Virus record (IMG/VR): IMGVR_UViG_3300044970_001685
Length of the DNA stretch: 64,000 bases
Source: a virus
Reading direction: 5' to 3' (one strand)
Shown: positions 4,043 through 38,212 of the stretch, piece after piece
Layout: every line of letters begins with the position of its first letter
How positions within the stretch are numbered: the first letter of the stretch is position 1
Translations under genes and position numbers: made by a program
The notes under the pieces: generated by a model
The model's input: the letters and a program-made list of their open reading frames with translations, nothing else
What the model was told of the DNA's origin: nothing
Databases searched by the model: none

Positions 4043-4114
4043 GACATTAGAGCCGTGGAAGGTGCCCTTCGAGAGAGGTGGTGTACCCCCCTTCTATACG
4101 GATGTAGAGTTCAA
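4043..4114 (+). ncRNA. structured 5' leader of the hydrolase gene (candidate cis-regulatory RNA)
   Basis: CCGTGGAAGG...CCTTCTATACGG outer stem enclosing a GAGA-tetraloop hairpin; GC-rich island in an AT-rich intergenic region. Confidence 0.55.
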
Positions 4115-4123
4115 TTAATTTTA

Positions 4124-4756
4124 ATGCAAAACATCTTTACTGTAGCCCTGCCCCTTCTGGCATCGGTTACAACCAATATGGCAACACTGCCTGTATTTCC
4201 TCCTTTGACGGCACCACCAGCGCCATTTTCTGTTGTTAAGGAGTTTGAAACTACGACAGCGATCCGAGAGGTTGCTCCCGAAAAGCCAAAAGAGAAAAGG
4301 CTAATTTGTAAAGGGTGTTCAGAACATGAACAACTTGCCTTGGATTATTTCCAAGATCAAGGAATTAAAGACAGAAACGCCCTTGCTACTATCATGGGCA
4401 ATATTAAGCAGGAATCTATGTTCGTGCCTAATATTTGTGAAGGTGGTAGCAGGACTCAGTACCATCACTGCGGTCGTGGTTATGGACTGATCCAATGGAC
4501 ATCTGCCGATCGTTATTATGGATTGGGTGATTTTGCTAAGAAGTTTGGTGGTTCTCCATCAACACTTCCAACGCAACTTCGTTATCTGACGAATGAAGTT
4601 CAATGGAAACGAATCGAAGACCGAATGAAAACTCCTGGTAAGTCTATCGATCGCTACATGAACTATGCGTACAGTTGGATTGGTTGGGGCATTCATGGTG
4701 CTCGTACATCTTATGCTCATGAATATGCTAACCGACTGATCACGGTAGAAGTTTGA
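4124..4756 (+). CDS. lysozyme-like cell-wall hydrolase (phage tail lysozyme / lytic transglycosylase fold) with N-terminal signal
   Basis: ATIMGNIKQES (catalytic Glu helix), GYGLIQWT motif; start reassigned to ATG 4124 (MQNIFTVALPLLA). Confidence 0.85.
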   Translation: MQNIFTVALPLLASVTTNMATLPVFPPLTAPPAPFSVVKEFETTTAIREVAPEKPKEKRLICKGCSEHEQLALDYFQDQGIKDRNALATIMGNIKQESMFVPNICEGGSRTQYHHCGRGYGLIQWTSADRYYGLGDFAKKFGGSPSTLPTQLRYLTNEVQWKRIEDRMKTPGKSIDRYMNYAYSWIGWGIHGARTSYAHEYANRLITVEV

Positions 4757-4770
4757 CAAACTGAATAGGT

Positions 4771-4808
4771 GAGGGGGGCTTGACAGATGCCCTCCTCCCA
4801 TCTATAAT
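4771..4808 (+). promoter_or_regulatory. sigma70 promoter for tRNA cluster, with -35 in a hairpin loop
   Basis: TTGACA 4780-4785, 17 bp, TATAAT 4803-4808; stem GAGGGGGGC/GCCCTCCTC. Confidence 0.85.
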
Positions 4809-4825
4809 AAACAAGTGATTCAATT

Positions 4826-4999: not shown

Positions 5000-5077
5000 A
5001 GGGAGAACTAGAAATGTCTGGGACTTCCTCTAAATCCTAAGTTTACTTAGGTCGGGGATTTGATCACCCCCGCTAGT
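5000..5077 (+). ncRNA. structured inter-tRNA RNA of unknown function
   Basis: three hairpins: AGGGAG-AA-CTAGA(AATG)TCTGG-GA-CTTCCT; CCTAAG(TTTA)CTTAGG; CGGGG(ATTTGATCAC)CCCCG; fills the Asn-Thr spacer. Confidence 0.55.
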
Positions 5078-5078
5078 T

Positions 5079-5150
5079 GCCCTTGTAGCTCAGTGGTAGA
5101 GCGCGGCTTTTGTAAAGCCGATGTCGCAAGTTCAAATCTTGTCGGGGGCT
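5079..5150 (+). tRNA. tRNA-Thr(TGT)
   Basis: anticodon arm CGGCT-TTTGTAA-AGCCG; GTTCAAATC T loop. Confidence 0.95.
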
Positions 5151-5178
5151 TGACATAATATTCATTATGTCTTATACT
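5150..5178 (+). promoter_or_regulatory. sigma70 promoter
   Basis: TTGACA 5150-5155, 17 bp, TATACT 5173-5178. Confidence 0.8.
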
Positions 5179-5204
5179 TTACAAGTCCGTGTGAAGTGAA
5201 GTGC

Positions 5205-5275
5205 TGAGAGTGAAGCCAAAAGTAAGGCACCCCGACAAGGGATACAGTAGAAGGATGCGAAACCTTCCACTCTCA
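5205..5275 (+). ncRNA. tRNA-like cloverleaf RNA without a canonical anticodon arm
   Basis: TGAGAGTG/CACTCTCA closing stem; GCC(AAAAGTAA)GGC; CCC(CGACAA)GGG; GAAGG(ATGCGAAA)CCTTC. Confidence 0.65.
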
Positions 5276-5279
5276 CATT

Positions 5280-5351
5280 GCGGAGTTAGTTCAGTGGTAG
5301 AACGCTATCCTTCCAAGTTAGATGTCGTCGGTTCGAATCCGATACTCCGCT
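5280..5351 (+). tRNA. tRNA-Gly(TCC)
   Basis: GCGGAGT/ACTCCGC acceptor stem, loop CTTCCAA. Confidence 0.95.
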
Positions 5352-5367
5352 TATAAAACCAAAAAGC

Positions 5368-5472: not shown

Positions 5473-6966
5473 ATGAAACTCAAACAACTGATGCTTGCAC
5501 CTGTTGCTCTGGGAATGGTTGCTCCTGTTGCTGCGAATGCCGCAGATCTGAATATGGCAGCAGTCAACCAATACTCTTCTGAGCAGGTTACAAGTGTCTC
5601 ACAACTGTCTGATGTTCAACCTTCGGATTGGGCATATCAGGCACTCAGCAACCTTGTAGAGCGTTATGGTTGCGTTGCTGGTTATCCTAACGGCACCTAT
5701 GGTGGTGGTAAGGCAATGACCCGATTTGAGGCAGCAGCACTTCTGAATGCTTGCCTTGACCGTGTAACCGAAGTTACTGATGAACTTCAACGTCTTGCAA
5801 AGGAGTTTGCTGATGAACTTGCAGTAATTCGTGGTCGTGTAGATAAACTGGAAGCAAAAGTGGGTGCTCTGGAAGCAACTCAATTCTCCACCACTACCAA
5901 ACTGAAAGGTGAAGCATCTTTCGTTCTTGGTGGTGTTGATAATGCTTGGGTTCCTGGTAAGGATGCCAGTACCAATGTAGGCAATACTGCTTTCAATTAC
6001 GATCTTCGTATCAATCTTGATACTTCTTTCACTGGAAAGGATCTTCTTCGCACTCGTCTGCGTTCTGGTAATTTCTCTTCTCAACCCTTTGGTTCCAGTT
6101 CTTCACTGTTCAAACTGGATAAGGCAGAGAGCACTGCTGATGTAGTTAAACTGGATCGTCTGTATTATAGTTTCCCTGCTCTTGCTAAGGGTGTAACTCT
6201 GACTGCTGGTGCTCTGGTTCGTAACACTGAGATGACCTGGATTCCTTCTGCTTATAAGTCGGATGTTCTGGACTTCTTCCAACTTGCTGGTGCTCCTGGT
6301 GTCTACAACAAGGCAACTGGTTCTGGTTTTGGTGCTCAATGGGTGCAAGGTAAGAAAGGTTTTGTTGCTGGTCTGAACTATGTTGCACAAGGTGGTTCTG
6401 ATTCCACCAAAGGTGAGTTTAACGAAAAAGGTGCTCTGAACACTCTTGCTCAGATTGGTTACCGTGCTCCTAATTATGGTGTTGCATTCGGTTATCGTTA
6501 TGGTACTGAAGGCACTCGTGTTCGCACCTTCAATGGTGTTCTGGGTTCTTCTGGTGCTCTTGCTCCTGGTCAAACCTCTAATGGTTATGCTCTGAGTGCT
6601 TACTGGCAACCTTCCAAGTCTGGCATCATTCCTTCTGTGAGTGGTGGTTATGGTTGGAATACTGTAAGTCTGAATGCCGAAGGTGAAGCAACTCCTAATG
6701 GCGCTACCGATTCGCAAACTTGGTACGCTGGTCTCCAGTGGTCTGATGTACTTGCTAAGGGTAATTCTGCTGGTTTTGCTATCGGTCAGCCTGGTAATGC
6801 AGAAGGACTTACTAAGGAAGCAACTATGTGGGAACTGTTCTATAAGTATCGTGTGAGCGACAACATCACTGTTACTCCTGCAGTGTTCTATGTTTCGAAC
6901 AATCAGGCACTTTCGGATACCTCTTCCAACTATGGTGGTGTAATTCAAACTACCTTCCGTTTCTGA
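5473..6966 (+). CDS. som: cyanobacterial outer-membrane porin (Som/OprB family with SLH domain)
   Basis: signal peptide, SLH motif SDVQPSDWAYQALSNLVERYGC, FSTTTKLKGE, C-terminal QTTFRF; start reassigned to 5473. Confidence 0.95.
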   Translation: MKLKQLMLAPVALGMVAPVAANAADLNMAAVNQYSSEQVTSVSQLSDVQPSDWAYQALSNLVERYGCVAGYPNGTYGGGKAMTRFEAAALLNACLDRVTEVTDELQRLAKEFADELAVIRGRVDKLEAKVGALEATQFSTTTKLKGEASFVLGGVDNAWVPGKDASTNVGNTAFNYDLRINLDTSFTGKDLLRTRLRSGNFSSQPFGSSSSLFKLDKAESTADVVKLDRLYYSFPALAKGVTLTAGALVRNTEMTWIPSAYKSDVLDFFQLAGAPGVYNKATGSGFGAQWVQGKKGFVAGLNYVAQGGSDSTKGEFNEKGALNTLAQIGYRAPNYGVAFGYRYGTEGTRVRTFNGVLGSSGALAPGQTSNGYALSAYWQPSKSGIIPSVSGGYGWNTVSLNAEGEATPNGATDSQTWYAGLQWSDVLAKGNSAGFAIGQPGNAEGLTKEATMWELFYKYRVSDNITVTPAVFYVSNNQALSDTSSNYGGVIQTTFRF

Positions 6967-7029: not shown

Positions 7030-7074
7030 CTTAACCAAATCTTAGTGGACTTTAAGGTTCTCTTCCAGTATTAT
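7030..7074 (+). promoter_or_regulatory. putative Pho box (SphR/PhoB) promoter of pstS
   Basis: CTTAACCA, CTTAGTGG, TTTAAGGT direct repeats at 10-11 bp spacing; -10 TATTAT 7069-7074; no -35. Confidence 0.65.
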
Positions 7075-7110
7075 TACTTACGAAGTCAATTCACTTCCAA
7101 AAAACTTTTT

Positions 7111-8073
7111 ATGAAACTCAAAAATCTTATTGCTATTGGTCTGGTTGCTGCTCCTGCTGCTGCTCTTGCTGGACCTGCTCTGAATGGTGCTGGAGCTACG
7201 TTTCCCGCCCCAATTTATCAACGATGGTTCCAGGATTTTGCTTCGTCTACTGGAAATCGTGTTAATTACCAATCTGTTGGTTCTGGTGCTGGTGTTCGTC
7301 AGTTCATCGCTGGGACCGTCGATTTTGGTGCGTCTGATGAACCGATCAAAGCATCGGAAGCAGCAAAGGTGAAGCGTGGTGTCGTTCAAATCCCTATGGT
7401 GGGTGGAACGATTGCTGTCGCTTATAACAAACCTGGATGCAAACTAAAACTGACCCAGAAGCAAACCGTTGATGTATTCTCTGGACGCATTAAGGATTGG
7501 AAAGCACTTGGTTGCTCCGCTGGTCCTATTCAAGTGGTGTATCGTTCTGATGGATCTGGAACTACCTTTGCATTCACCAACTCTCTGGATGCATTCGGTG
7601 GTTGGGCTCCTGGTGTTGGTAAGGCAGTCAAGTGGCCTACTGGTGTTGGTTCAAAAGGTAACGAAGGTGTTGCTGGAACCATCAAGAACACTGCTGGTGC
7701 GATTGGCTATGTGAATACTGGATTTGTTCGTGCTAACAAACTCCAAGCAGCAGTTCTTCAAAACAAGGCAGGTAAGTTTGTTGGACCTTCTGCTGCAACT
7801 GGTTCTGCTGCTCTGAATGGTATTACTCTGGATGCAAACCTTGCTGGCGAGAACCCCAATCCTGCTGGTGTAAATGCATATCCCATTTCTACTTTGACTT
7901 GGATTCTTGCTTATAAGAAAGGTAATGGTGCAAAGGCAGATGATATTCGTGCCGCTATTAACTATGCTCTAAGCACAAAGGCACAATCTATTGCTGATGA
8001 TCTTGGATATGTTCCTCTTTCTGGTAGCGTTCTGAACAAAGCACGTCTTGCTGTTGGTCGCATCGGTAACTGA
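7111..8073 (+). CDS. pstS: phosphate ABC transporter substrate-binding protein
   Basis: GAGATFP, YQSVGSGAG, DFGASD, RSDGSGTT, YPI motifs; start reassigned to 7111. Confidence 0.97.
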   Translation: MKLKNLIAIGLVAAPAAALAGPALNGAGATFPAPIYQRWFQDFASSTGNRVNYQSVGSGAGVRQFIAGTVDFGASDEPIKASEAAKVKRGVVQIPMVGGTIAVAYNKPGCKLKLTQKQTVDVFSGRIKDWKALGCSAGPIQVVYRSDGSGTTFAFTNSLDAFGGWAPGVGKAVKWPTGVGSKGNEGVAGTIKNTAGAIGYVNTGFVRANKLQAAVLQNKAGKFVGPSAATGSAALNGITLDANLAGENPNPAGVNAYPISTLTWILAYKKGNGAKADDIRAAINYALSTKAQSIADDLGYVPLSGSVLNKARLAVGRIGN

Positions 8074-8080
8074 CATACAT

Positions 8081-8116
8081 AGGGGGGTTGACAAAACCCC
8101 CTTTTTAATGTATTAT
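8081..8116 (+). terminator. intrinsic terminator with embedded sigma70 -35 for the next genes
   Basis: GGGGGTT-GACAA-AACCCCC-TTTTT; TTGACA 8088-8093, 17 bp, TATTAT 8111-8116. Confidence 0.85.
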
Positions 8117-12462: not shown

Positions 12463-12590
12463 TAAAACTAAGTGGTGGAGTCAAATATGACCCTATTGTT
12501 TTCTTGCTTTTCTCAAGAGCAAGTGGTGCGGATGGGACTCTCTCCCGCCTGGTTTCCAATTTCCAGTTAAAGAATTGGTGGCGAGCCTGA
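12449..12590 (+). ncRNA. wcaG-type RNA motif (three hairpin-UGGYG units)
   Basis: CTTAGTTT/AAACTAAG-TGGTG; CTTGCT/AGCAAG-TGGTG; CCAATT/AATTGG-TGGCG; upstream of gmd/fcl as known for cyanophage wcaG RNAs. Confidence 0.75.
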
Positions 12591-12595
12591 GTTAC

Positions 12596-38080: not shown

Positions 38081-38112
38081 ATTCTCATAATTCTTAACAT
38101 TGCTCACACCCG

Positions 38113-38212
38113 CTAACCGAGACCTATGGGTGTATAAATTACGTCTCTCATACCCAGTCTGAGGGTGACTGGGGAATAGTATCACCACCATTTCCCTGAT
38201 GGTCTTACTACT
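38113..38212 (+). ncRNA. PhotoRC-II-type psbA leader RNA
   Basis: GAGAC..GTCTC, CCCAGTC..GACTGGG, ACCAT..ATGGT stems; TATGGG/CTCATA pseudoknot potential; directly 5' of psbA. Confidence 0.75.

Follow-up and report, generated by a model that had tools for sequence, protein, structure and literature searches.

A conserved, non-decoding tRNA-shaped RNA gene in the tRNA arrays of freshwater cyanomyovirus-like phages

The stable RNAs species 1 and 2 of phage T4 (rnaC and rnaD), small non-tRNA RNAs situated among the tRNA genes of a T4-like myovirus, are among the closest known systems to the element described here. Both are co-transcribed, are released by tRNA-processing enzymes and exceed 100 nt in length; to our knowledge, their function is still not known, and no sequence relation to our element is expected. 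The latter is by comparison a compact 70-nt cloverleaf, has its own promoter and occurs in cyanophages. YrlA (RF02553), a bacterial and phage Y RNA found in some phages near tRNA genes, likewise contains a tRNA-like, non-decoding domain, but its ends form a Ro60-binding stem and its gene lies beside rsr, whereas the ends of our element form an ordinary acceptor stem. Similar in architecture are mascRNA and menRNA, derived from MALAT1 and MEN-beta: they are also ~60–70 nt long and non-decoding, keep an acceptor stem and T arm, and have a reduced D arm and no usable anticodon loop (PMC11693755). They are, however, eukaryotic and come from the 3′ end of a long non-coding RNA, and their mimicry of the tRNA elbow and acceptor half is what recruits RNase P and RNase Z; mascRNA has two D-loop guanines, a 7-nt T loop and a long anticodon-equivalent stem, where our element has one D-loop G, an 8-nt T-like loop and a 3-bp middle arm (PMC11693755). 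Finally, the promoter of the element, as distinct from the tRNA-shaped RNA, is similar to the PeSL motifs of T4-like phages (PMC2839356, PMC4122927) in that a near-consensus sigma70 promoter is joined to a conserved stem-loop and its surroundings are plastic, the insertions here including HNH genes. Non-decoding tRNA-like RNAs are thus already known as a class, to which the present core is an addition.

The element was located in a 64,000-nt stretch of viral DNA (IMG/VR record IMGVR_UViG_3300044970_001685), referred to below as the window. A wcaG RNA at 12495–12592 (102 bits) and a PhotoRC-II RNA at 38095–38187 (83 bits) mark it as cyanophage DNA, and its nearest isolate is the freshwater Synechococcus myovirus S-SRM01. 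The plus strand carries an array of tRNA genes starting at 4825 (Arg), 4927 (Asn), 5079 (Thr), 5280 (Gly), 8458 (Val), 8844 (Ser) and 11595 (Pro), and the neighbouring protein genes encode a tail lysozyme (4055–4756), an OprB/SLH porin (5476–6966) and a PstS-like phosphate-binding protein (7045–8073). The ~70-nt core (5206–5275, plus strand) lies between tRNA-Thr(UGU) (5079–5150), the 3′ end of which touches the promoter, and tRNA-Gly(UCC) (5280–5351; 68.9 bits in Rfam), the next gene of the same predicted transcription unit; both tRNAs were recognized by ARAGORN and Rfam. Elsewhere in the array, a GC-rich hairpin followed by a perfect TTGACA-N17-TATAAT promoter just 5′ of tRNA-Arg (4765–4808) probably marks where the first tRNA sub-operon begins, and the tRNA-Asn/tRNA-Thr spacer (5000–5077), with a short block GAAATGTCTGGG common to S-SRM01, may host another structured RNA.

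A preliminary description, made from the letters of the window, had proposed a tRNA-shaped RNA with no functional anticodon arm behind its own promoter, and our analysis supports this; promoter, GTGAA-type leader and cloverleaf are all present where it placed them. Minimum-energy folding yields the cloverleaf both from the 129-nt spacer (z −6.0; no shuffle out of 200 did as well) and from the isolated 70-nt core, where it accounts for 62% of the ensemble (z −5.06), and RNAalifold gave the same structure on the variants. The closing stem had been described as a perfect 8-bp helix, and in the window it can indeed be drawn so, TGAGAGTG (5205–5212) pairing with CACTCTCA (5268–5275), but its eighth pair is not conserved. 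This pair, U5205:A5275, becomes C.A or U.U in several relatives, and position 5275 is A in most loci and shows no conserved pairing with 5205; the conserved stem is therefore one of 7 bp (5206–5212 with 5268–5274, paired in all 20 distinct variants) followed by an unpaired discriminator, A5275, as in tRNA. The remaining arms were found in the fold essentially as first described: a D-like arm GCC/GGC (5215–5217 with 5226–5228) with the loop AAAAGTAA; a stunted arm CCC/GGG (5231–5233 with 5239–5241) with the 5-nt loop GACAA, also given by RNAalifold; an 8-nt linker ATACAGTA (5242–5249); and a T-like arm GAAGG/CCTTC (5250–5254 with 5263–5267), the 8-nt loop of which is ATGCGAAA. The 3′ end of the core reads ...CCTTCCACTCTCA, and in the genome CAT rather than CCA follows; the 4-nt spacer CATT (5276–5279) between discriminator and tRNA-Gly thus encodes no CCA. 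Overall, the 7-bp acceptor stem and unpaired discriminator of a tRNA are present, and its 5-bp anticodon stem with a 7-nt anticodon loop is absent.

The loops depart from tRNA as well. The invariant GG had been reported as lost, and the D-like loop AAAAGUAA does hold a single G versus the GG of tRNA; the T-like loop reads AUGCRAAA over 8 nt, compared with the 7-nt T loop (T-Psi-C-R-A) of tRNA, and one lineage has C where U54 would stand. [quoted passage not shown] Linked changes do suggest an elbow-like contact that would join the D-like loop, at U5223, to the final base of the T-like loop, A5262: every core variant with C at the first position has G at the second, and no variant is changed at one of them only. 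However, U5256 within the T-like loop is an alternative partner for A5262 (seen as U:A, U.G and C:G), making the assignment of the contact ambiguous. As a side observation, some bona fide tRNA-Thr genes of these phages (in L003, L017 and L091) have the T loop TGCAAAT, which carries G at the expected U55 and resembles the TGCRAA in the T-like loop of the core.

The promoter matches the sigma70 consensus at 11 of 12 positions (TTGACA at 5150–5155, a 17-nt spacer and TATACT at 5173–5178) and is presumably of the early type; its first base, 5150, is at the same time the discriminator base of tRNA-Thr. By a strict pattern, such a promoter lies no more than 75 nt from the core in 57 of 70 contexts, and the others have TTGACA-N17-TATTCT, another near-consensus promoter, or an HNH insert with the promoter farther upstream. 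Folding of the 129-nt spacer places a hairpin inside the promoter spacer (5152–5171: GACATAAT, loop ATTC, ATTATGTC), for which compensating changes (GACGAAA/TTTCGTC) were found in five loci (L006, L013, L015, L016 and L046) and a U.G wobble (ACTCGTTATGTC) in many. Promoter and hairpin together look like a PeSL-like composite; a near-consensus sigma70 promoter, a conserved stem-loop, and HNH genes and other inserts nearby are all present, and the stem-loop lies within the promoter spacer itself. The exact motif occurs once in the 64-kb window. A second composite terminator/promoter of PeSL type is found at 8081–8116, where the loop of a terminator-like hairpin (AGGGGGG..CCCCCTT) holds the −35 box of a TTGACA-N17-TATTAT promoter.

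Judged by the spacing from the −10 box, transcription would start at ~5184–5186. The 5′ leader (5185–5205) contains GTGTGAAGTGAAGTG, the usual form among relatives being GTGTGAAGGAAGT, and the GTGAAG leader repeat GTGAAGTGAAGTG is at 5191–5203. No complementary site for the leader as an antisense seed was found above chance level in the window. One leader motif, GTGTGAAGG (window 5189–5203; GGAAG in most relatives), is complementary to CCTTCCAC (5263–5270), which comprises the 3′ strand of the T-like stem and the beginning of the acceptor 3′ strand; by this complementarity, the precursor could adopt an alternative fold. The leader is almost missing in L016, L030 and the L053 lineage, and in the first two the promoter passes nearly directly into the stem.

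Searches against known RNAs were negative for the element. ARAGORN, which had been expected to fail, found no tRNA in the core at its default, 80% or 60% thresholds, and its mitochondrial and tmRNA modes left the plus strand empty. Rfam 15, including the tRNA (RF00005) and YrlA (RF02553) models, gave no match to the element at the gathering threshold or at E ≤ 10, on either 801 nt or the 80 nt of 5200–5279; the single YrlA match in the region (5050–5102; 15.7 bits, E 3.3) is at chance level and outside the element. A tRNA parent was sought among 398 distinct array tRNAs, and only the tRNA-Cys D arm was alike. The preliminary description had compared the D-like arm with a Gln/His-type D arm, GCCAAGTGGTAAGGCA; that sequence does occur literally, in tRNA-Cys genes of related contigs. 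A copy of a host tRNA was also rejected, as no picocyanobacterial tRNA with the acceptor stem of the core was found in a pattern scan that demanded a GTTCNANNC T loop; tRNAs that combine this acceptor stem with A73 are mostly tRNA-Lys of Planctomycetes and tRNA-Val of Saprospiraceae. Two further candidates were discarded. An open frame (5201–5356) crosses the core, but its start is not conserved (ATG, AAG or ACG at 5213–5215), and on inspection third codon positions are not favoured among the variable sites; a terminator-like match on the minus strand (5245–5227) is simply the stunted arm read backwards, and no minus-strand gene ends there. No account of the element was found in the literature on cyanophage tRNA-like RNAs, a search that covered sources other than the supplement of a catalogue of 10,006 candidate viral RNAs (PMC10690425).

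The complete core was found in 108 viral or metagenome loci, representing 75 distinct contexts, by four pattern scans of IMG/VR and one of the JGI and ENA metagenomes. It has ~30 sequence variants of constant length (a 69-nt core), and it is single-copy both in the window and in a 100%-complete viral relative of 233,886 bp; with model R1, neither the window nor any of five related genomes or records was found to hold extra or diverged copies. Its pattern had no match in 185,579 prokaryote species genomes, and when the spacer was compared by BLAST with 50,697 phage records, no isolate phage had the core, only the promoter and leader of S-SRM01 being matched. In every locus the core is within a phage tRNA array; its carriers are freshwater cyanomyovirus-like phages, and it is confined to their arrays. 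The slot contains a normal tRNA in no relative; the preliminary description had named such a tRNA as its refutation and therefore stands on this count. The upstream neighbour is tRNA-Thr(UGU) in 51 of 70 contexts. Of 69 contexts, 65 have tRNA-Gly(UCC) directly downstream and the other four have tRNA-Lys(UUU); this tRNA starts 3–7 nt past the last stem base in 53 of the 69 and, beyond inserts of 65–130 nt, 69–130 nt past it in the other 16. One of these inserts is a conserved 65–70-nt module (CAAACATTAGGTAAG...) between core and tRNA-Gly, seen at L017:1334–1402 (minus strand) and in ~12 other contexts, and it has no notable structure (z −0.06).

Over the 46 distinct loci with tRNA-Thr, core and tRNA-Gly, the core has a mean pairwise identity of 97%, compared with 85% for promoter and leader, 71% for tRNA-Thr and 73% for tRNA-Gly, so that the core is held more tightly than the bona fide tRNAs flanking it. 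For loci chosen by the leader only, i.e., with no selection on the core sequence during the search, the corresponding values are 97%, 92%, 83% and 79%. None of the seven acceptor pairs varies, nor do most of the loop bases. The intact stems had been taken as an argument against random decay, and the comparison bears this out, the changes in stems being mostly compensatory or wobble. Pairing holds in 99.5% of cells across 20 distinct variants. Pairs changed on both sides were seen in the stunted arm (C5233:G5239 to U:A), in the T-like stem (G5254:C5263 to A:U) and between the loops (U5223/A5262 to C/G); none of 500 shuffles reached either the observed pairing or the observed covariation score, though in so uniform a family the covariation comes from few events, perhaps no more than one or two for each pair. 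Most single stem changes produce G:U (L043, L062, L020, L081, L097 and L115). Because G:U pairs would be mismatches on the opposite strand, and because model R1 scores the core at 104.7 bits on the plus strand versus 11.6 bits on the minus strand, the RNA is assigned to the plus strand. There are weak points: the D-like stem, of only three pairs, lacks compensatory changes and cannot form its outer pair in L043, and the T-like stem of L072 contains an A.C mismatch.

The contexts are also informative where they differ. In the most divergent lineage (L053, L056, L060 and L097), the core heads the array and is preceded at 8 nt by another promoter (TTGACA-N17-TATTCT), without the GTGTGAAGG leader; the discriminator is U in L056 and L097 and A in L053, and tRNA-Lys starts 3 nt past the stem in L056 and L097. 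The second promoter, the near-absent leaders, the tRNA-Lys neighbour and the inserts together indicate that the core is tied to no single tRNA, leader or promoter. The arrays of L053, L056 and L097 were also seen to contain promoter cassettes that are nearly identical to one another (TTGACA..GGATCC..TATGAT/TATGGT, then TGTCTTAT). These precede tRNA-Arg, in L053 also tRNA-Lys and in L097, in part, tRNA-Gly, and single tRNAs in these arrays seem to own their promoters. S-SRM01 and five viral contigs have a short form, in which the same promoter and leader are followed by a 6–7-bp hairpin in place of the cloverleaf. This hairpin carries compensating changes of its own, and alignment to the long form matches its loop to the T-like loop and its 3′ strand to the 3′ strand there, from which we read it as an internal deletion of ~45 nt. 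Since S-SRM01 is cultured and infective without the RNA body, the latter is dispensable in at least one host, and the loss is consistent with an accessory, host-dependent role for the core.

These data establish a conserved, structured, plus-strand, single-copy and non-decoding RNA gene that resides in tRNA arrays independently of its neighbours, and that is maintained by selection under a constraint stronger than that on the adjacent tRNAs. As ~100 related contigs keep it more faithfully than they keep real tRNAs, it is judged to be a working RNA and not a dead tRNA. Our preferred reading goes one step further and holds that it is an autonomous, processed, tRNA-like RNA gene; we assign this a rough probability of 0.55. 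Contigs from two of four RNA libraries span the core, which is a weak hint because such contigs could derive from DNA or from precursors; one of them (depth 65) begins at 5203, i.e., 3 nt before G1 (5206), and extends across the core, a 65-nt insert and tRNA-Gly as far as the porin gene.

The core might instead be a cis-acting 5′ leader, which would direct or protect processing of the transcript that contains the downstream tRNA and would serve no purpose after its release. The constant presence of a tRNA directly downstream, in most contexts within a few nucleotides, fits this idea, as does the short form, where a stem alone may suffice. A processing or stability signal, however, has no need of 97% identity across all stems and loops while the tRNA it serves drifts to 73%; moreover, the core tolerates the inserts mentioned above, and an HNH gene between it and its promoter, and it would have to serve two different tRNAs behind two different promoters. 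We therefore consider a purely cis-acting leader possible, if unlikely.

A less probable alternative places the conservation at the level of DNA: promoter, leader and core would form a cassette that is mobile or homogenized, through HNH gene conversion or through recombination at composite motifs, and that may be an endonuclease target too. There is some substance to this. In L019 and L045, an HNH endonuclease ORF (Pfam HNH, 24.5 bits; L019:3973–4401 on the minus strand in the former) is inserted exactly at the leader/core junction, its stop codon overlapping either the first base of the stem or the stunted-arm loop, and four more loci (L057, L076, L080 and L101) have the tail of an HNH-type ORF in this region. 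The HNH gene was observed to lie apparently between leader and core in L057, L076 and L080, where its stop overlaps the core, and between tRNA-Thr and the promoter in L101. These free-standing genes are reminiscent of SegB-type homing in the tRNA clusters of T4. In addition, neither flanking tRNA is as uniform as the cassette taken as a whole, and PeSL-type composite motifs have been reported to mediate shuffling in T4-like phages (PMC4122927). Against it, the changes mostly respect pairing in the plus-strand RNA (compensatory or G:U), which a DNA target would not need; most loci lack an HNH gene; and identity falls sharply at the 3′ edge of the core, 4 nt before tRNA-Gly, whereas a co-conversion tract would fade gradually. 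Homing enzymes usually choose sites that are already constrained, so this explanation is in any case compatible with an autonomous RNA gene.

A decaying tRNA pseudogene that has lost its anticodon arm would account for the location in a tRNA array and for the D arm shared with phage tRNA-Cys, but beyond that arm none of the array tRNAs is alike, and a sequence almost unchanged in 108 loci, with pairing-preserving changes, its own conserved promoter and a conservation exceeding that of functional tRNAs, makes this highly improbable. Equally improbable is a Y-RNA-like partner of the Ro60 ring protein, which had been put forward earlier by way of YrlA, likewise the bearer of a non-decoding tRNA-like module: the YrlA model did not match, the two ends pair into an acceptor stem of tRNA type and not into a long Ro-binding stem, and TROVE/Ro60 (PF05731) is absent from the complete carrier genome (G001) and from three other related genomes or records (G003, G002 and S-SRM01; one of the three also carries the core), positive controls having been detected.

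If the core is an autonomous, processed RNA, its life may be pictured as follows. An early transcript, started at its own sigma70-type promoter, would contain both the core and the next tRNA; cuts by host RNase P at G5206 and by RNase Z or RNase E after A5275 would release the core, and the host CCA-adding enzyme may then tail it. Neither a PolyA_pol/CCA-adding family protein nor RtcB nor an RNA ligase was found in G001, G003, G002 or S-SRM01. The stable RNA would act in trans and occupy a factor that recognizes tRNAs by their acceptor stem, T arm and 3′ end. Given the invariance of the seven acceptor pairs and most of the loop bases, this partner would have to read sequence and not shape alone. 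One may speculate that the RNA is a phage decoy or competitor for a host enzyme directed at tRNA ends or for a defence nuclease. Of the targets named in the preliminary description (anticodon nucleases, RelA and synthetases), anticodon nucleases are unlikely because the anticodon loop is precisely the missing part; if the RNA is a decoy, it would be aimed at factors that recognize the acceptor and T half of a tRNA. The more specific form of this proposal, a top-half decoy (acceptor stem, T arm and added CCA) for a host toxin or defence system attacking tRNA 3′ ends or acceptor stems, is doubtful. Its targets could, speculatively, be exemplified by HEPN-type tRNases, MenT-type nucleotidyltransferases and Cas12a3-like tail nucleases, and immune nucleases that grip the T arm, acceptor stem and CCA tail do exist (PMC12851939).

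The tRNA arrays of phages are usually seen as aids to codon usage or as spares against anticodon nucleases. A non-decoding core that is kept more tightly than its neighbouring real tRNAs suggests that phages put the tRNA shape to a second use, outside translation. The family is uncatalogued, being absent from Rfam 15 and missed by tRNA finders, and S-SRM01, as a natural deletion form, is a ready comparison for it. The hosts concerned are the ecologically dominant picocyanobacteria; were the top-half decoy true, their translating tRNA pool would be spared during infection, and the core would be the first dedicated RNA counter-defence of its type.
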